From IMG/VR virus record IMGVR_UViG_2690316062_000005: a DNA stretch of 44,255 nt; one strand, written 5' to 3'. Each line of letters starts with the position of its first letter. The first letter of the stretch is position 1. Position numbers and translations under genes: made by a program. Below are positions 2,835 through 17,730 of this stretch, piece after piece. The stretch comes from a virus. Lineage: Duplodnaviria; Heunggongvirae; Uroviricota; Caudoviricetes. The notes beneath the pieces are model-generated. The model ran no database searches, was not told where the DNA came from, and saw only the letters and a program-made list of their open reading frames with translations.

Positions 2835-5800
2835 TTATGCCTGAGTACGCAGCGCTTCAAGGCGGCGCAGGTCGAAGTCGTTCAGTTCGTCGGTGTAGTC
2901 AGCAGTGATTGGCGCTGGCCATTCACCTGTGTCGAATCCGGTTGCGATATTGCGCATCGCTTTGCGGTACTCGAGCATACCCAGCTCCAGTAGTTCAGCG
3001 GATGCCTCGATGATGGCGATCCAGTGGTAGTTCTCGTCTTTGTTGACGAAAATCCAGAAGAACTGATCCAGCGCTGCGGTTTCGCAGTACATAGCCGCGC
3101 TCAGGTGATAATCACGTTCAATAATTTCCCGGTGTAGCCTGGCGCGCAGGCTTTCCTGCTTAACATTCCACATGCTGATGGTTTTCAGGTCTGCACCTAT
3201 ACGCACGCCATCCAGGTCGATCTCAAGGTCAGGGCGCACACGAACTTCCAAGCCCGTCTCCTCGTCAAAACCAAAGTAGCTCACCTCAACGGCTCGGCTA
3301 GGGTGGGTCAGCAGCATGCCGGCGGTCGGGTGTGCCAGAAGCGCTTTTTGAATATTCAGCGCGGTGCTCAGCTGCTGGCGGGTGACCAGCACTTTTCCTT
3401 CCGGGTTATCGCGCCAGGCATCCAGCAGTTCGTCGGCAAATACGGCATCTGGTTTGACTGCCTTCACGGCCTGGATCATGTCTGCTTTGGTACCGGACAC
3501 TTTCAGTGGTGCCGGTTTCTGTGCTTCCTGAGCCACAAGGTCAGGGTTGATGATTGCCAACTGCTCCAGCAGCGCGTCACGGCTGCCGCTGGTTTTAACC
3601 GGCGGCGGCAGGGTGGCGTTGTACTCTTTAATGCATGCCTTCATTGCCGTCGCCGTCTGCTTCTGGTCACCATCAATACGCTGGAAGTCAGCTGGCAGCG
3701 CCATATAGTTCTGTGCCGTTTCTTCCAGGTTAGCGCCAAGCGGAACCTGCGGCGGCAGGGTGGCGTTGTACTCTTCCAGTAACACCTTGATGTCGTCGGC
3801 AGACAGCAGCGCCGGCAGGCTGGCATTGTGCTCATCGATAAAGGCGCGCAGGGTCGCGGCCGTTGTGAATGCGCCTTCAGGGATCACCGGTTCAACGCTG
3901 AATTCTGCGTCCAGTAGTTCAGGCTGCAACGCCAGCGCATGCACCAAGTTGCCCATGTCCAGCACCGCTGAGCGCTCTTTGACGATGGTTTTCTCTACGT
4001 GGCGCGCATTGAAGTACATCAGCGAAACGCGCGCATCTTTCACCTGGGTTGAGCTGATGCCGTTGGCGGCGTGGTAAACCTCGTTTGGCAGCCCTTCATA
4101 GCGGCCTGGCTCGAAATAAGCGGGATAAACAACAGCTGGTTCGTCAGATTGCGCTTCTGGCTCGGTTTGTGCTGCAACTGGTTCGGTTTGGCTTACAGAA
4201 TCGCTATTTTTGGCGACAGAATCCGTATTCTGGTCTACATCGTCCTTCTGGCTGGTATCTGACTCTTCACCAGACTCCAGACTGCTTTCGCCTGGCTGTA
4301 CTTCATCACCAGCTTGTTTTTCATCACTGACAGTTTCTTGAACCTGCACATTGCTGGTGGTCTCCGTAGCCTTTTTCGTGCCATGAGTTGCTGAGTTCTG
4401 CAGCAAAGCCGTAACGTCGAATATTCCGTTGCCGACATTTTTAACCAGTTCTTGTTCGACTTTCTGCGGTTGTGCTGCCGCTTCCTCTGCGCGGCGGCGT
4501 GCTCCTTCTTCACGCACGCGTTGCAGGTTCTCTTCGTGAGTGCAGAAGGATTTGCGCGGAGACTCCTTACCTTCAGGTTGGGGAATTTCCTGTGCTGCGG
4601 GTTCAGCCTCATGCAACGGCAATAACTCGACCGCGGAATTGAACGCGGCTGTCATGGTCTGGTTAACAAATTCCAGGTGAGCGACAGGAGTTAAATGAAT
4701 ATTTTCCGGTGCGATACGTACCAGGTTAAAAATAGCCGTGCGGTTAACACCCAGAACGCCTGGCTGATTGCGCAGGATGTTGCTCCATGATTTCCATGGT
4801 TCTTCTTTTTTGGTCACGATTTCTTTAGCGCGACGAAGAATGCTGCCCGGGATCTCGAAGTGGTTGAAGTCCATAGGCAGAAGGGCACACGCAATCTCTA
4901 AATCGAGAGTGTCCAGTGTGTGGTGTGCGTCAGGTCCACGGTCAGTGACGTAACCGCCGTCGGCATTAGTGCCGGAATCAGTACGCTGCACACTACTGAT
5001 GCGATTACCGGCGGCCCATTCGCGAACGAGGATACCGCGGTCGATGTGATCTGTAGCGAACCACAATTTCAAAAACTGGATTAAGGTTGCGAGTTCAGGG
5101 ATTTTTCCATCGACAGGGAAGACTTTCTTAACGGCATTCACGACTTTATGAATATCGTGCTCAATGGCTTTTTTGAATGCTTCCACATTCTCAGCTGCCA
5201 GCAGCAGGTTCTGGACGTACGCGTCATCGGTGTCCATCTCAAGGCGGACAATCTCATTTTTCTGCCCTGCGTCGATGTGATAGAGATATTCACCATCACC
5301 GATGAACTGAGCCAGTACGCGCTGGCGGAATGGCAGGGTGGCAACAACGATCAGGTTCGGTTGCTGTGTCTGCTGGGATTGCTCTTCGGTATCGACTTCA
5401 CCATCAACGACGCCACCTTCTGCCCGGCCGTTCTCGTCGGTCTGGATACCGTCCTCAACAGTGAGATCTTGACCCGTTGTAACGTCAGCAGCGTTGCTGG
5501 TTTCAGTTTTGAGCAACTGCAACTTACCACTGCGCCAGTCTTCTACCAGTTGATTGCGGTCACCGGCATCGGTGTTCACCCAGTCAGACATGAATGCAGC
5601 GATCAATCTTGGTTCGTGCTCTTCGTCTGGTGTGAAAATGTCCTTAACCGCCCGAATCATTTTCCACTCAGCATTCAGGCTGAGTTTGGCGGTCGCGGGC
5701 ACATCGTTCCTTGCCACAAGCAGGCTATGGAGATATGTATTGCCTTCATCCAGTGACATTTCGCTGGCAGCCAACTGCTGCTCTTTAGTGACGTGGGTTT

Positions 5801-7931: not shown

Positions 7932-8564
7932 TTACTTTGATTTTTCCTGTTGGTGAAGTACTCGTGGAGTAGTTGGTTCTTGAGGTAATTGGATGATAAC
8001 AGGTTGCTGCGCTACTGGTTGAACTACGGGCGGATCACTCTTCAAGGCAGAAACAAGACTAGGTAATGCAACGACAACCGCAATGATAACGCCAAAAATA
8101 GCAAGCCTAGTGGAAATACCTGATTGAATACCGCCAATCGCAGTGTTTATTCCTGTAATTTGCCCTTGTATACCTTCGAATTTGCCATTGATGGCTTTTA
8201 CATCCCCATCAACGCTATCCATTTTCCCTTCAATTTTAGAAGAAATAGAGCTAATAGATGAATTGAGCGATGCCAGCTGAACGTTCATATTCTCGCGTGA
8301 CAAAGCCATTTCAGCTCTAATCGAAGATGCAATGGACTCCATCTCCGCCTTATTGGCAGCTAGAAGTGCTTGCATTTCTTCACGGCTAACTGATGACATT
8401 TCATTTCCCCCATCAGTTTCATTAGCTTCATCTGTTGATTTGATAAAGTTAGTATACATTTCTTCTTTATCGACGCGTAGTCTGTTTTGAACATTGGGGT
8501 ACAGGTCATCTTTATCAATGCCAGAACCGCAGTCTGGGACAGCTTTGAGAGATGGGCCCATCAC
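7932..8564 (-). CDS. Coiled-coil protein with C-terminal transmembrane anchor (unknown function)
   Basis: 210 aa; strong AAGGAG RBS; helical repeat-rich middle; hydrophobic segment LAIFGVIIAVVVALPSLVSAL near C-terminus then Pro/Gln-rich tail; start overlaps stop of upstream gene. Confidence 0.6.
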   Translation of the reverse strand: MMGPSLKAVPDCGSGIDKDDLYPNVQNRLRVDKEEMYTNFIKSTDEANETDGGNEMSSVSREEMQALLAANKAEMESIASSIRAEMALSRENMNVQLASLNSSISSISSKIEGKMDSVDGDVKAINGKFEGIQGQITGINTAIGGIQSGISTRLAIFGVIIAVVVALPSLVSALKSDPPVVQPVAQQPVIIQLPQEPTTPRVLHQQEKSK

Positions 8565-8923
8565 TTCCCATCCTCTCCTTGATCTTCTTTTCTTTTATTA
8601 ATCAGTGTCCTGGCTTTTTTATAAGAAAAAAGCAGTACATGTGCGCAGTGATCACACGTGATTCGAAATAGTGGCATACCGCCAGGATATGTCACAGCAC
8701 TATCAGTATCAGGTTTGTATTGTGCATAACTAAGTGTTTCGATCACATGATGTTTTGGCTGATTTTCTTCTACATCAAGATCAAAGGCACCAACTACAGA
8801 CCATGACTGGTTCCCGCAGATTTGGCAAGTTATTGGTTTTTTGAATGAATTTATGAAATCAATGAACTCATCCGCTGTGATAATCTCGGAGTTTGCTTCA
8901 CTATGAAATAATTCCGATTTCAT
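8561..8923 (-). CDS. Zinc-ribbon protein (unknown function)
   Basis: Start moved to internal ATG (MKSELFH...) with AAGGA RBS; CQIC ... CDHC pair; 120 aa; 44 bp downstream of cI on the same strand. Confidence 0.55.
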   Translation of the reverse strand: MKSELFHSEANSEIITADEFIDFINSFKKPITCQICGNQSWSVVGAFDLDVEENQPKHHVIETLSYAQYKPDTDSAVTYPGGMPLFRITCDHCAHVLLFSYKKARTLINKRKEDQGEDGK

Positions 8924-13111: not shown

Positions 13112-13557
13112 GCAACATCGACAAACAGGCGCTGCGCCTAACAGCAGAAAAGGCAAAAGATAACTTCATGCCGAACTTCATGGTACCAACTCGCGATTTA
13201 CTGGCGCTGCTGGATGAGCTGGAAGCCGCAGAGAAGCGCATAGCAGAACTTGAGGGGGGCGCATTCAATCCCGCAATTCTTGATGTGGTAGCCGAACGTC
13301 AGCGGCAACAGTCGGTTGAAGGATGGACTCCTGAACATGACAACGCATATCAAAATAGCGAATTAGCAGATGCAGCGGCTTGTTACGCAATTCATGCGCA
13401 CAACCAAGGTTTCTCCACTCCAGCACATTGGCCGTGGTCGCCTGATTGGTGGAAGCAATCAGGAGCACGCTGCGACTTGGTAAAAGCTGGCGCTCTTATT
13501 CTGGCAGAAATTGAACGCATTGACCGCGCCGCTGGCATTGGCGTGAAGGGGGAATGA
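13108..13557 (+). CDS. Hypothetical phage early protein
   Basis: 149 aa; N-terminal coiled-coil-like region; conserved-looking WPWSPDWWK segment; translationally coupled. Confidence 0.5.
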   Translation: MSNIDKQALRLTAEKAKDNFMPNFMVPTRDLLALLDELEAAEKRIAELEGGAFNPAILDVVAERQRQQSVEGWTPEHDNAYQNSELADAAACYAIHAHNQGFSTPAHWPWSPDWWKQSGARCDLVKAGALILAEIERIDRAAGIGVKGE

Positions 13558-13558
13558 G

Positions 13559-13762
13559 ATGTCAAAGTCACCAATGAAACTCATGCTACGGGCATGGAAC
13601 AAAGAGCTTAAAAATCCAGAATGGGGCATGGGCAATCGTAAACACCGCAAAGCTTGTGCTCGTGATTTTGCCGGAGCCAGCATAGAAACCGATGCTGATA
13701 TCCCTAACCAAGCCGAAGCAGATGACCGCCTGGCGGAAGAACTTACTTACTGGACGGACTAA
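13559..13762 (+). CDS. Hypothetical small protein
   Basis: 67 aa; GGGGGA RBS; in a tightly packed early gene string. Confidence 0.4.
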   Translation: MSKSPMKLMLRAWNKELKNPEWGMGNRKHRKACARDFAGASIETDADIPNQAEADDRLAEELTYWTD

Positions 13763-13765
13763 CCC

Positions 13766-14215
13766 ATGACAACTAACCACCCGGCGCACGGTCATGTATC
13801 ACTCGATCGCCTGCACCAGATACGCGAAATACTCAGCAACGCAGCAGCACAAAGCGACGGCGGTAATCTCGGCTACGCAATGGCTGATGCTGTGAAGGTG
13901 ATTGATGGAGTTCTGGAGTCGATGGCCCGTGAGCAAGTACGCCGTGAGCATGCTACATGGTCACAGGCTACTTTCGGCGATGTCGGTCCAGTTGGTCCGC
14001 TGAAGCACCTTTCCAAAGAAGCGCTCGAGGCGGCAGCTGAACCAAGTGACCTTACCGAATGGGCTGACATGCAATTCCTGTTATGGGATGCGCAACGTCG
14101 TGCCGGTATCAGTGATGAGCAGATTACCCTGGCGATGGTAGAAAAGTTGGCGGTTAACAAACAGCGCGAATGGCCTGAGCCGAAAGATGGTGAGCCGCGT
14201 CTGCACATCAAGTAG
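13766..14215 (+). CDS. Hypothetical phage protein (possibly MazG-like nucleotide pyrophosphohydrolase fold)
   Basis: 149 aa; EHATWSQATFG ... LKHLSKEALE ... EWADMQFLLWD resembles small all-alpha NTP pyrophosphohydrolase proteins of lambdoid phages; unverified. Confidence 0.4.
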   Translation: MTTNHPAHGHVSLDRLHQIREILSNAAAQSDGGNLGYAMADAVKVIDGVLESMAREQVRREHATWSQATFGDVGPVGPLKHLSKEALEAAAEPSDLTEWADMQFLLWDAQRRAGISDEQITLAMVEKLAVNKQREWPEPKDGEPRLHIK

Positions 14216-14268
14216 ACTCTTATGGATAATTGAACCCTAATTCATTATGAACATAATAAGGAGTCCTT

Positions 14269-14589
14269 ATGTCTTACATAATGCCTGAAAAAGGCCAAAT
14301 GAATGAATATGGAATTGAGGCTTTCGGGATCCCGCTTACCAGTAGGCATGGAGTTGCGATGGAACTGTCTCAAATGCTACGTTTTTCTTACTATGTAGCT
14401 TCAGTTGGGCTTGTAAAATGTATTGAAAGTGTCTTCTATGATTCAGGCTCTTGCTGCTGTAATTTTGAATTTATTCCCGGGTTTAATGAGTATTCGGAGG
14501 AGGCAGAAAAAATTAGACAGTGCGCGCTACGTTCGATTGGGCAATTTGAATGGTTCGGTATGATTGAACACGGCGACATCAACGGCTAA
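14269..14589 (+). CDS. Hypothetical protein (standalone AT-rich moron)
   Basis: 106 aa; AAGGAG RBS; unusual CCC cysteine triplet (GSCCCNFEF); followed by a terminator. Confidence 0.5.
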   Translation: MSYIMPEKGQMNEYGIEAFGIPLTSRHGVAMELSQMLRFSYYVASVGLVKCIESVFYDSGSCCCNFEFIPGFNEYSEEAEKIRQCALRSIGQFEWFGMIEHGDING

Positions 14590-14620
14590 GTGTTTAACTC
14601 CAATAGCAAACGAATAAAAG

Positions 14621-14641
14621 CCTCTAAGTTAGAGGTTTTTT
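14621..14641 (+). terminator. Putative intrinsic terminator
   Basis: Short hairpin CCTCT-AAGTT-AGAGG followed by TTTTTT. Confidence 0.45.
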
Positions 14642-14844
14642 ATGTCTGAAAGGTAGCATTACCAAGTCTATGGTTGCCTAGCTCAGTCAGGCTTGTATTT
14701 GGTTGCTTAGCAATCAACTCATGCGACATGAGCGGGATCTTTCTAATCATCATTTTCGGTAAATGATTTTGGTTGCTTGGTTGACAAAATCGAGAAAATG
14801 CGAAAATATATGGTTTACGAATTCCAAAAAAAGCGAAACTTGAA

Positions 14845-15495
14845 ATGAGCGACAACCAGTTAGCACCTTGTTGGGAATTTCAGCCTTACCTTGCTGAAAG
14901 CAATGTTCGTCAGTTGTTAGCGGAAATTGCTAATGTACTCGAGCAATTGTACTACCACAAACACACACTGGACAGTAACTGGTCCGAAGGTGTAAGGGCT
15001 TATGATTGGGTCAGAAATCATTTGATTCAAAGTGAAGGGACACTGCCGGGTCTGGAAATGGTTTCGAAGGGACTGGATTATGTGGTTGCGTTAAATAAAG
15101 TGCCGCTGCAGTTCTCCAAAGATTGCATTAATAACCCGAAGAAGAAGCATCGCCTTCTTCGAAATAGGGTGGAGCATGAGCAACTTTCATTGTTCGGTGA
15201 AACTGAAGCCGAGCAAGATATTACATGGCGGATCATCGCCGAACCATTTTTATCCGATGAAGAAGATGGCGAGCTGGAATCAACATTGCCTCGCTGGGAA
15301 GTGGCTTTAGTTGGGTTTAACGCATATGGTGCCCAGATCAGTATGGTTTCACACCAATCTACTGCTTCAGCGCCGCTTATGTCTCTTGATACCAACACTC
15401 TTCCGGATGAAGCTGAGATTGGCAAAGCCTCTCTTCGCCGCCGTAAAAAAGATCAAGATTTGGATGTGAGCAGTAATGGAACATCAAGTGAATGA
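14845..15495 (+). CDS. Hypothetical protein, unknown fold; candidate toxin/effector partner of downstream HTH-peptidase
   Basis: 216 aa; no motif I recognise; overlaps the downstream gene by 20 nt (out of frame). Confidence 0.55.
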   Translation: MSDNQLAPCWEFQPYLAESNVRQLLAEIANVLEQLYYHKHTLDSNWSEGVRAYDWVRNHLIQSEGTLPGLEMVSKGLDYVVALNKVPLQFSKDCINNPKKKHRLLRNRVEHEQLSLFGETEAEQDITWRIIAEPFLSDEEDGELESTLPRWEVALVGFNAYGAQISMVSHQSTASAPLMSLDTNTLPDEAEIGKASLRRRKKDQDLDVSSNGTSSE

Positions 15496-16579
15496 CTTTG
15501 CTGAGTATCGTGGGGATAAGCTCAAATTAGCCAGAATGGCTGTTGGGCTCTCCTGCGAAGAGTTAGCGGAGAAAATTGGTAAAACAAAACAATTCGTTAG
15601 CAAATTGGAAAAAGGGTTTAAACCATCAGAACAGTTGTTAGAATTAATCTCATCTGCGCTGATGATTAAATCTGATTTCCTATTTACTGAACGAAAATAT
15701 GCTTTAGAAAGCGATGTTTGCCATTTTCGGAGTAAAAAATCGAGAACCCAAACATTAACCAATAGTGTTCTGGCAAGGGCGGAGATTCTTAACATTATAA
15801 TCTCTGCCGTTGAGGGAGAAATCGAGTTTCCTGATGTTTTCATACCTGAGCACCCCGGTGCTGAATTGCTGACTCCAAATGATATTGAACGTGTAGCGGA
15901 AGACTGCAGAAGAGCATGGAACTTAGGGCTGGGACCTATATCCTCAATGGTCAAACTGGCTGAGAGTTTGGGGGTTATTGTTGCTCATGTGACAGGAGTG
16001 GATGACCGCGTAGATGCTTTTACTGTTCATAACAACAGGCCAGTAATCATCCGAAATAACGTCAAAAAGAGTATATGCAGATTCCGATCAGATTTAGGTC
16101 ACGAATTGGGGCACTTGGTTATGCACGAAGGTATAACCACAGGAGATAAAGTGACTGAATCGCAAGCGGATCGTTTTTCAAGCGCGTTGCTAGTTCCTCG
16201 ATTGTCCTTTATTAAAGAGTTTCCCCGTATACGAGGAAGACAGTTCGATTGGAACGCCCTAGTTGAGTTTAAGCTTCGGTGGAAGATTAGTCTTAAAATG
16301 TGCATTTACCGAGCAACAACTCTAGGCCTGCTGACGCAGGAGCAGGCAAGAACAGGTTATATGCATTTGAACTCTAAAGGATATACGAAAGTTGAACCAG
16401 GAGATGAATTTATTCGCCCGGAAGAACCGAGTATGTTAGCTGAGGCGATTGAAATGCTGGATGATGCAACATGGATGAGCATTCTCATGAAAACTGGTTT
16501 AAGCCAGGAGTTGGTTAGGGAGTTATTCTCGGTAAACCGCCCACTGTCAAATCCAAGAAATCTACTTCAACTGGTTTGA
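15476..16579 (+). CDS. XRE-family HTH fused to ImmA/IrrE-type zinc metallopeptidase (COG2856-like)
   Basis: 367 aa; N-terminal HTH (LARMAVGLSCEELAEKIGKTKQFVSKLEKG); HEXXH zinc-binding motif in DLGHELGHLVMHEG. Confidence 0.8.
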   Translation: MEHQVNDFAEYRGDKLKLARMAVGLSCEELAEKIGKTKQFVSKLEKGFKPSEQLLELISSALMIKSDFLFTERKYALESDVCHFRSKKSRTQTLTNSVLARAEILNIIISAVEGEIEFPDVFIPEHPGAELLTPNDIERVAEDCRRAWNLGLGPISSMVKLAESLGVIVAHVTGVDDRVDAFTVHNNRPVIIRNNVKKSICRFRSDLGHELGHLVMHEGITTGDKVTESQADRFSSALLVPRLSFIKEFPRIRGRQFDWNALVEFKLRWKISLKMCIYRATTLGLLTQEQARTGYMHLNSKGYTKVEPGDEFIRPEEPSMLAEAIEMLDDATWMSILMKTGLSQELVRELFSVNRPLSNPRNLLQLV

Positions 16580-16597
16580 CTCAAAGCTTGTAATAAA

Positions 16598-16618
16598 CCC
16601 GCTATATGCGGGTTTTTT
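16598..16618 (+). terminator. Intrinsic terminator
   Basis: CCCGC-TATAT-GCGGG hairpin followed by TTTTTT, 19 nt after the stop of the 367-aa gene. Confidence 0.65.
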
Positions 16619-16743
16619 CTTTCTGGTAGCGCGCTGTGGTAACGCTGTGCCTCCAGCGCTCGCTGAGGCGCTGGTGCGTGCTAATTTGCCGGAGCTTTGT
16701 CAGCAGAAACAAATAGCGGCGTAATAAAACATTGCTAATTCAA

Positions 16744-16762
16744 CCCGCTACGGCGGGTTTTT
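16744..16762 (+). terminator. Intrinsic terminator
   Basis: CCCGC-TACG-GCGGG hairpin followed by TTTTT. Confidence 0.6.
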
Positions 16763-16829
16763 CACTCTCTATTGTATATGCTATTTTTTATGCAATAAGA
16801 GCGATTAGTCGGACGCAACTGGGGAATGC

Positions 16830-17030
16830 ATGGATTCAACGAACGACGAAGAAAAACGTATAGAATTTGAAAAATTCATCATTGAAAGGTTTGGTGATGC
16901 AGTTGATCTCCGCAGAGCGAAAAATGGCGGTAATGGATATATATCATGGGAGGCGGCTGTAGCATGGATTGTCTGGCTGGAGCGTCCATTGCATCATAAA
17001 ACCAATTCGACAGGGGCTGAACCAGCCTGA
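16830..17030 (+). CDS. Hypothetical small protein
   Basis: 66 aa; GGGGAA RBS 5 nt before ATG. Confidence 0.4.
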   Translation: MDSTNDEEKRIEFEKFIIERFGDAVDLRRAKNGGNGYISWEAAVAWIVWLERPLHHKTNSTGAEPA

Positions 17031-17130
17031 TACTGCGGTTTTTTCTTGCATTGATTTTCCATTATCAACTGTACATAATGTCAGTGTCAGCCTGAACAAC
17101 TGACAACTTGATGCGCCACGGAGAGAAACC

Positions 17131-17730
17131 ATGGCGCACGAATTACAACTCATCAAGCAGTCCTCAGGAATCCTGATCCCCGCGACGCCGGAGACCAGCG
17201 ATATTCTGCAATCAAAAATCAAACTCGGAGCCGTACTGGTAGCCGAATTTCGTCAGGTGAGGAATCCAGCATTCCATCGCCGTTTCTTTGCGCTCCTGAA
17301 TCTCGGGTTTGAATACTGGGAACCCACCGGTGGGGCGATTTCTTCCAATGAACGTAAATTGGTGACCGGGTACGCTAAATTCCTCGCGGCATTTGGTGGA
17401 AACGAAGGCGCACTGCTGGATGCTGCCGAGCAGTATCTGGACCGTATCGCCGATAAGCGCGCCGGTAGTATCAGCATCTGCAAATCCTATGACGCATATC
17501 GTGCATGGGTGATCATCGAGTCTGGCCACTACGACGCCATACAGCTTCCCGACGGCACCCTTCGCAAACACCCCCGCAGCATTGCCTTTGCCAACATGGA
17601 CGAAACCGAGTTCCAGCAGCTGTACAAAGCCGCGCTCGATGTTCTGTGGCGCTGGGTATTGTCCCGGGCATTCAAGGACCAGCGTGAAGCGGAAAACGCC
17701 GCATCGCAGCTCATGAGCTTTGCGGGATGA
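17131..17730 (+). CDS. nin-region protein, YbcN-like (DUF1367-type)
   Basis: 199 aa; N-terminus MAHELQLIKQSSGILIPATPETSDILQ matches my recollection of YbcN-type proteins upstream of ybcO/rusA in lambdoid prophages. Confidence 0.5.
   Translation: MAHELQLIKQSSGILIPATPETSDILQSKIKLGAVLVAEFRQVRNPAFHRRFFALLNLGFEYWEPTGGAISSNERKLVTGYAKFLAAFGGNEGALLDAAEQYLDRIADKRAGSISICKSYDAYRAWVIIESGHYDAIQLPDGTLRKHPRSIAFANMDETEFQQLYKAALDVLWRWVLSRAFKDQREAENAASQLMSFAG

Follow-up and report, generated by a model that had tools for sequence, protein, structure and literature searches.

ORF106, an open reading frame (ORF) of 106 codons, is a genuine protein-coding gene under strong purifying selection. It lies in the 44,255-nucleotide (nt) stretch of Caudoviricetes DNA held in IMG/VR as record IMGVR_UViG_2690316062_000005, which is referred to here as the window and in which position 1 is the first letter. 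The gene forms a discrete cassette, comprising a ribosome-binding site (RBS), the ORF and a terminator, in the nin-like early region of a lambdoid/Rac-type prophage. Its product belongs to a widespread, uncharacterized family of single-domain, acidic, cytoplasmic proteins of about 100 residues, made up of phrog_29216 and about 200 distant sequence clusters. The family behaves as cargo that moves horizontally with temperate phages and genomic islands. An earlier reading of the letters alone, termed the sequence-only reading, had described ORF106 as a standalone AT-rich moron with an unusual CCC triplet, situated upstream of a helix-turn-helix (HTH)–peptidase cassette and perhaps part of the same accessory island. 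The useful outcomes of the present analysis are corrections to that picture: the neighbour is identified as RosmerTA, ORF106 stands outside it, and the CCC triplet is a red herring. Loci bearing ORF106 relatives or RmrTA-like DNA carry L-numbers in the following, and relative proteins carry P-numbers.

The ORF106 cassette and its protein family

The reading frame with the segment GSCCCNFEF, its RBS and its terminator are all present as the sequence-only reading had it (table 1). The translation starts with MSYIMPEKGQ and ends with HGDING. The Shine–Dalgarno sequence falls inside a block of DNA conserved with locus L067, which opens 24 nt 5′ of the ATG (14245). The ORF106 stop codon is followed after 26 bases by a hairpin that has an A-tract on one side and a T-run on the other (14616–14641), with a folding energy of −11.2 kcal/mol and z = −3.4 against dinucleotide shuffles; the terminator scan reported this hairpin, at 14616–14640, on the minus strand. 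L067 keeps the terminator with a longer stem (−16 kcal/mol) in DNA that is only 78% identical. Homology between the window and L067 covers exactly 14245–14645, that is RBS, ORF and terminator, and ORF106 is therefore regarded as an independent cassette beside a swappable cargo slot. The AT-richness of the gene is also confirmed. ORF106 has a guanine + cytosine (GC) content of 41.7% and opens a low-GC island (14216–17130, 43.0% GC) lying between a left flank of 55.3% and a right flank of 50.6%. Sigma-70-like promoter matches in the region occur at chance level (7 found against 5.9 expected); two 9/12 matches lie upstream of ORF106. An Rfam scan of 13500–17500 returned no credible match.

Selection on the coding sequence is strong. 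The ratio of nonsynonymous to synonymous substitution rates (dN/dS) is 0.05–0.09 overall, at dS of 1.4–1.9. Comparison of the window with L002 and L067, whose relatives are 85% and 82% identical, gives dN/dS of 0.056–0.063 (dN 0.08–0.10; dS 1.4–1.7, which is saturated), and the near-identical clade gives 0.08–0.09. P2-type relatives were unusable for this purpose because they are out of register in an ungapped comparison. Lack of conservation, which the sequence-only reading had named together with lack of transcription as what would speak against it, is not what these data show. Close full-length relatives number four in a collection of 5.8 billion proteins, at 99, 85, 82 and 76% identity, and ORF106 was found in 5 of 5426 complete E. 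coli genomes. One NCBI protein of 81 residues, P0005, is a frameshifted allele: its first 55 residues are near-identical to ORF106, and the remainder follows an alternative frame corresponding to the window ORF 14423–14563. P0005 is either a pseudogene or a sequencing error.

The wider family is large. An exhaustive phmmer search of 1.84 billion cluster representatives yielded 202 clusters at E ≤ 1e-3, 59 of them at E ≤ 1e-10. Among the PHROGs v4 profiles, ORF106 matches phrog_29216 with E = 1.3e-75, residues 1–106 aligning to positions 1–106 of the 106 in the profile, and the same profile is matched by all 109 aligned relatives. Its PHROGs annotation is ‘unknown function’. Scans with Pfam, NCBIfam and PADLOC gave no match for ORF106, and nothing above noise when the 109 relatives were scanned one by one. 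A PDB sequence-profile search gave 0 matches at E ≤ 10. A literature search for phrog_29216 and the RefSeq accessions found no paper that names them. The statement that the protein has no recognizable family thus holds for Pfam, NCBIfam, PADLOC and PDB but not for PHROGs; given the full-length phrog_29216 match, it should therefore read ‘catalogued but uncharacterized family’. Neither tblastn nor megablast found an ORF106 homologue among 50,697 deposited phage genomes and 72,556 plasmids. ORF106 has an isoelectric point (pI) of 4.65 and a net charge of about −7. Acidity is a family trait, with a median pI of 4.76 across 149 members, 128 of which lie below 5.5. No signal peptide or membrane segment is apparent in ORF106 by eye.

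Profile and structure searches had been proposed as checks. Sequence and profile searches produced the PHROGs match and the 202 clusters; PDB and Foldseek searches produced no relative. An AlphaFold2 run on 58 diverse homologues gave a mean predicted local distance difference test (pLDDT) score of 93.2 and a predicted template modelling (pTM) score of 0.84, with all five models at least 85. It supersedes a mediocre run on 5 close sequences (pLDDT 68). The model predicts, with confidence, a beta-beta-alpha-beta-beta-alpha-beta-beta sandwich with no solved relative, in which strands span residues 15–18, 21–25, 52–58, 63–68, 92–95 and 98–101, and helices span 30–45 and 77–89. Foldseek comparison of the model with PDB and BFVD returned nothing at E ≤ 0.001. 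The HFX_CASS1 integron cassette protein (PDB 3fuy), Mmp17, BON, OsmC and FliF ring-building motifs give scores generic to two-layer alpha/beta sandwiches, at 3–13% identity to ORF106, and transfer no function.

Residue conservation was read from two family alignments, of 109 and 58 members. Family-wide, the conserved residues are R26, E32, Y57-D58-S59, C64, A86 and Q92-F93. R26 never varies in either alignment, nor do E32 and Y57 in the smaller one of 58. Conservation reaches 90% or more, in at least one of the alignments, at F19, G20, M36, F39, F56, D58, S59, C64, A86, Q92 and F93. Position 101 is His in 81 of 109 members; position 27 is Tyr in 66 and His in 32.

Genomic contexts, domain fusions and possible roles

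Relatives of ORF106 occupy recurrent sites in temperate elements. Three loci at 55–57% identity (L013–L015) are P2-like prophages. The relative in L013 lies 25 nt after replication gene A, and the upstream DNA of L014 and L015 is truncated. In L013 and L014 the relative precedes the portal gene, which is the classical P2 cargo site. Cargo sites of P2 include tin/old and orf30. A relative at 61% identity (L017) starts 10 nt after a gene resembling DNA polymerase III theta, beside xis/int of a lambdoid prophage. More distant relatives take other positions. In the P2-like prophages L021 and L045 the gene stands between tail gene S and those of the baseplate; in L059 it is divergent from a DprA-like/SLOG gene near serine recombinases; in L062, a temperate element, it runs antisense to the early genes; in L065 it ends a four-gene islet inserted between bipA and ilvD; and in L020 its neighbours include transposases and a reverse transcriptase. 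Compared with 8 kb of flanking DNA, the family gene is richer in AT in 35 of 38 loci (median difference −9.5 GC points). Pfam families that recur among 122 neighbour proteins, taken from further loci in Pseudomonas, Xenorhabdus and Methylomagnum, are YqaJ exonuclease, ERF/RecT, SSB, AAA_24, DNA methylases, NA37, putAbiC and portal. When neighbour ORFs were clustered all against all, alternative-frame ORFs made the result too noisy to define a single conserved partner gene.

Several of these loci deserve description in their own right. The low-GC islet of L065 (3521–6339) encodes an HTH_3 protein of 101 residues, proteins of 162 and 504 residues, and then the family member. By eye, the 504-residue protein is repeat-rich with N-terminal hydrophobic segments, and the four genes could be an undescribed multi-gene system. 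In L067, the DNA upstream of the ORF106 relative (340–983) carries a 117-codon ORF and an overlapping gene for a 97-residue HTH_26/HTH_3 protein, and the two look like a small toxin–antitoxin or regulator pair; the relative starts 28 nt after the latter gene. In some Pseudomonas prophages a further family member lies a short way upstream of the first (L053, 5509–5970; L051, about 5020–5300), the two being tandem or nearby paralogues.

Longer relatives carry the family domain at the C-terminus of assorted partners. In P0019 it follows CoiA_N and CoiA_nuc. In P0020, P0057 and P0116 it follows T5orf172/MUG113, and in P0129 an HNH-like region that is weakly matched; P0071 and P0085 share this last layout by eye only. 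DUF5710 precedes the domain in P0034, and an HTH domain (HTH_31) in P0107. P0119 has the domain N-terminal to a methyltransferase-like region, a weak match, and P0006 is a tandem duplication of the family domain. The T5orf172 fusions recovered from metagenomes lie in bacterial contigs, each a low-GC gene standing alone between ordinary chromosomal genes, and no locus of the HNH and CoiA fusions was found in viral contigs. A role of the domain as a sensor of immune-signalling nucleotides was considered and is unsupported: no multi-gene signalling operon was apparent at six T5orf172 loci, where neighbours were read as ORFs without domain libraries. The distant stand-alone members P0018, P0185, P0186 and P0047 end in DDEPF, EDDPF, EETPF or EEVPF. 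Such tails resemble the acidic C-terminal tip of SSB that docks SSB-interacting proteins, and this DDxPF-tailed subset could plug into the SSB interactome. ORF106 has no tail of this type.

The explanation that we favour, tentatively and at a little under even confidence, is that ORF106 is a cassette of its own whose small acidic product would bind a partner or ligand in DNA-level conflict between phage and host, beside an independently promoted RosmerTA. The protein would mostly be made with phage early transcripts. Relatives start 10–28 nt after gpA, the theta-like gene or an HTH gene (10–55 nt when the window is counted), and no promoter stands out in the window, which together make expression from early transcripts probable. 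The protein may work as a dimer, as the tandem-duplicated P0006 suggests. A polar patch (R26, E32, Y57-D58-S59, C64, Q92 and, in most members, H101) would serve to bind a conserved partner or small ligand and would not be a cysteine–metal cluster; binding of this kind is suggested by the acidic surface and the deeply conserved polar residues. ORF106 would then modulate or target a nuclease or DNA-metabolism factor. That the domain is fused behind nucleases of three unrelated folds, and that stand-alone copies neighbour genes of recombination, replication, methylation and defence, points to the DNA or nuclease level as the arena of conflict. The net effect may be counter-defence, defence, or tuning of replication or recombination.

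Several considerations weigh against this proposal. No known ligand-binding, nuclease-regulatory or anti-defence family matches ORF106 by sequence or fold. The polar residues invariant across the family could equally fit an enzyme active site. Arms-race inhibitors are usually fast-evolving, and the very low dN/dS and deep conservation suit a housekeeping-like phage function somewhat better than an anti-defence role of the classical kind. Absence from all deposited phages and plasmids searched is odd if the early function is of general use to phages. Finally, two of the three independent enterobacterial lambdoid contexts have RosmerTA directly downstream, with RmrA only 34% identical between the two, which hints at a RosmerTA link that is perhaps underrated.

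A bolder extension of the favoured reading, which is doubtful, would make the phrog_29216 domain a hitherto undescribed family at the level of fold, one that recognizes a conserved partner or small ligand and has nucleases to regulate or target. ORF106-like stand-alone copies would then be new early-expressed temperate-phage modulators of a host or rival nuclease or replisome, and a new counter-defence or defence-sensor family. The upside, if this were true, is a new nuclease-regulating or ligand-binding module. The value of the family lies in its roughly 200 clusters with no Pfam entry, a confident model without a solved relative, invariant polar residues, fusion behind CoiA-type, T5orf172 (GIY-YIG-type) and weakly matched HNH nuclease domains, and recurrence at prophage cargo sites. 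The family could reasonably be given a new domain definition and be added to screens for counter-defence or defence-accessory proteins of phages.

The alternative that survives best, though still unlikely, is that ORF106 is a moron of the lysogenic-conversion type, expressed while the prophage is repressed. It would protect the lysogen through superinfection exclusion or, like the relatives fused to nucleases, serve as a defence or sensor made of a single protein. The moron concept is reportedly that of Hendrix and Juhala. Distinct composition, a terminator of its own, presence/absence polymorphism and a discrete cassette are all seen in ORF106, and to that extent the moron claim of the sequence-only reading stands; a promoter of its own had not been part of that claim, and the matches to one are at chance. 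The relatives in L059 and L062, being divergent from or antisense to their neighbours, must have their own promoters, and others sit at P2 cargo sites or beside toxin–antitoxin or defence-type genes. The layout of a nuclease followed by the C-terminal domain resembles effector–sensor defence proteins, and the T5orf172 fusions are single-gene low-GC islets. Against this, none of the 109 members has a PADLOC match above noise, the window gene and several relatives start 10–55 nt after an early lytic gene, and a stand-alone domain of 100 residues has no evident effector.

Relation to the neighbouring RosmerTA pair

ORF106 lies directly upstream of the HTH–peptidase cassette, as had been claimed, and profile matches identify that cassette as the known toxin–antitoxin defence pair RosmerTA (table 1). 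The two genes overlap by 20 nt. RmrA additionally matches the NCBIfam model of the spr1629-family repressor/antitoxin, at 6.8e-46, which is under the cut-off of that model. RosmerTA is described as a two-gene system in which a variable toxin is paired with an antitoxin of the Zn-peptidase type (Millman et al. 2022, bioRxiv 10.1101/2022.05.11.491447; Ernits et al. 2023, PMC10440598). The spacer between ORF106 and rmrT measures 255 nt and contains the ORF106 terminator, followed by an array of candidate control elements. Four of the seven TGGTTGMY sites in the window are packed into 115 bp here, on one strand, and a variant copy, ATGGTTTAC, lies at 14810–14818, after the −10 region. The imperfect palindrome TTGGTTGCTTAGCAATCAA is found at 14699–14717 and a perfect −35 sequence, TTGACA, at 14781–14786. 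L067 has the 13-mer TGGTTGACAAAAT as well, ahead of its divergent rmrT (about positions 1443–1455). The elements in the window (14671–14818) are probably an RmrA-controlled promoter and candidate RmrA operators.

Table 1. Features of the ORF106 cassette and its surroundings, in window coordinates.
Feature	Position	Strand	Remarks
DUF550/dATP-dGTP pyrophosphohydrolase-family gene	13766–14215	+	PF04447, 8.8e-42; upstream neighbour
Shine–Dalgarno AAGGAG of ORF106	14259–14264	+	4 nt 5′ of ATG; from sequence
ORF106	14269–14589	+	106 codons, ATG start; phrog_29216 member; acidic
GSCCCNFEF	14446–14472	+	residues 60–68; predicted turn and beta-strand 4, after family motif FYDS
Intrinsic-terminator-like hairpin	14616–14640	+	A-tract, GCCTCTA/TAGAGGT stem, T-run 14636–14641; closes ORF106 cassette
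rmrTA intergenic control region	14671–14818	+	repeats, palindrome, −35; outside ORF106
rmrT, RosmerTA toxin, 216 residues	14845–15495	+	PADLOC RmrT PDLC03929, 2.4e-26; phrog_5786
rmrA, RosmerTA antitoxin, 367 residues	15476–16579	+	PADLOC RmrA PDLC03943, 1.6e-106; HTH_3 3.2e-9 and Peptidase_M78 1.3e-10 (Pfam)
Terminator 3′ of rmrA	16595–16615	+	−12.8 kcal/mol, z −5.1

ORF106 and RosmerTA travel together over short evolutionary distances. In the near-identical loci (E. coli, Citrobacter, gut metagenomes and IMG/VR prophages) ORF106 is always followed by rmrT-rmrA, and these loci share one stretch of 2.6–3.0 kb at 94–97% DNA identity. The block in question (13769–16702) comprises the DUF550 gene, ORF106, rmrT and rmrA and keeps this identity across prophages whose backbones differ in replication, antitermination, NinG/RusA and Q genes. 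The DUF550 gene, which is not low-GC itself, accompanies ORF106 in all near-identical loci whose DNA extends that far upstream. The near-identical loci represent one recently spread block and therefore count as a single event. Beyond them, L067 has its 82% identical ORF106 and the same terminator, and then a different RosmerTA pair in which RmrA is 34% identical over 210 residues and the 203-residue partner is almost unrelated.

Each of the two is also found on its own. RmrTA-like DNA (about 80% identity) occurs in 237 of the 5426 complete E. coli genomes, against 5 with ORF106. In two such loci that were examined (L068 and L069) it takes the same nin-region position, with hokD upstream in place of ORF106. 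In L002 the 85% identical relative has an SOS-box-like palindrome and a UmuD-like gene after it in place of RosmerTA, and no RmrA homologue was found in the fetched flanks of L002 or of any relative at 61% identity or less. Operonic coupling is not seen, given the 255-nt spacer with its conserved terminator, perfect −35 and operator-like repeats, and ORF106 gives no match to the RmrT or RmrA models in PADLOC, Pfam or NCBIfam scans. As ORF106 and RosmerTA each occur without the other, ORF106 is a separable cassette and not an obligate RosmerTA component. The suggestion that both belong to one accessory island therefore needs to be divided. They do lie in one low-GC island and in a co-travelling block; membership of one system does not follow from this, given the 237 genomes against 5 and the relatives without RosmerTA.

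It is accordingly rather improbable that ORF106 is a functional RosmerTA accessory, for example a self-immunity factor that keeps prophage induction from triggering RmrT, or a modulator or decoy of RmrA. The invariable succession of ORF106 and rmrT-rmrA in differing prophage backbones would fit such a role, as would the divergent pair behind the conserved ORF106 and terminator of L067 and the shared low-GC island. The first of these points is weakened by the single-event origin of the near-identical loci. The distribution in E. coli, with hokD upstream in both loci examined, the absence of RmrA from the fetched flanks of L002 and of all relatives at 61% identity or less, and the terminator and separate promoter region between ORF106 and rmrT argue in the other direction, as does the published description of RosmerTA as a two-gene system.

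Two observations concern the slots around these genes. In L002, the slot after the ORF106 relative (8322–8863) holds a strong terminator, the SOS-box-like palindrome TACTGTATAAATATACAGT and a gene for a 107-residue protein beginning MGFPSPASDY, UmuD/S24-like by eye; the content looks like a putative LexA-regulated moron in the place of RosmerTA. At the right edge of the island (window 16761–17092), homology to the prophage of E. coli KL53 (L001; NZ_CP030919, where ORF106 occupies 1079293–1079613) ends past rmrA. KL53 continues with a methyltransferase fragment and a DinI gene, and the window with a different 66-codon ORF (16830–17030) that weakly matches phrog_660. This edge is a variable slot.

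The cysteine triplet and comparison with known systems

The triplet to which the sequence-only reading drew attention is present, encoded by TGC TGC TGT at 14452–14460, with C64 at 14458–14460. As a key feature it does not stand, as C64 is the only one of the three kept family-wide. Position 64 is Cys in 99 of 109 members (91%) and Ala in 8. Position 62 is Cys in 50 (46%) and otherwise small and polar (Ser, Asn, Gly, Gln or Asp); position 63 is Cys in 27 (25%) and otherwise hydrophobic (Leu, Ile, Thr, Val or Met). Cysteine is also infrequent at positions 85 (26 of 109, 24%) and 51 (4 of 109, 4%). Across the family the motif reads F-Y-D-S-x-x-x-x-C, and of the three cysteines just the last is retained. 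About one member in four has the triple-cysteine variant, which is invariant only in the closest clade. The CCC triplet is a clade-specific variant and not a defining feature of ORF106.

It is very improbable that a cysteine cluster is the functional centre, whether as a Zn or Fe–S site formed by CCC or as a thiol peroxidase of the OsmC/Ohr type with a Cys-Arg-Glu site. The cysteines that would serve as ligands are not conserved across homologues. With C62 and C63 poorly conserved, a metal site built from three cysteines is unlikely, and the triple-Cys site was rejected on the conservation of positions 62, 63, 64, 85 and 51. Neither a profile match nor strong fold similarity to OsmC/Ohr, with Cys-Arg-Glu placed on an OsmC scaffold, was found for ORF106. 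C64 could nevertheless be part of a binding or active site together with the invariant polar residues. That ORF106 is a chance or decaying frame in an AT-rich spacer, with no functional gene, has a negligible likelihood: its rarity in E. coli and the frameshifted P0005 would fit, but the conservation data already refute it, with dN/dS of 0.05–0.09 at saturated dS, 202 related clusters, a confident fold prediction and a conserved RBS and terminator.

Three groups of known systems invite comparison. RosmerTA adjoins ORF106 downstream, shares its low-GC island and moves with it in near-identical loci. It differs in that the RmrT and RmrA models do not match ORF106, in the terminator and promoter region that separate them, and in that each is widespread alone. 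Small acidic phage-encoded inhibitors such as Ocr, ArdA and anti-CRISPR-type counter-defence proteins offer an analogy: ORF106 too is an acidic protein of about 100 residues with no enzymatic motif, encoded by an AT-rich gene in the early region. ORF106 differs from them in having no sequence or fold similarity to them, and in its strong purifying selection, invariant polar residues and absence from deposited phages. Morons and the cargo of prophage hotspots share with ORF106 a deviant composition, a terminator of their own and presence/absence polymorphism. ORF106 departs from morons in its promoter matches, which are at chance level, and in the several copies that are seemingly co-transcribed with early lytic genes. 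The likeness to hotspot cargo extends to location, with relatives at gpA–portal and gpS–gpV of P2-like prophages and in the nin and int–xis regions of lambdoid prophages.

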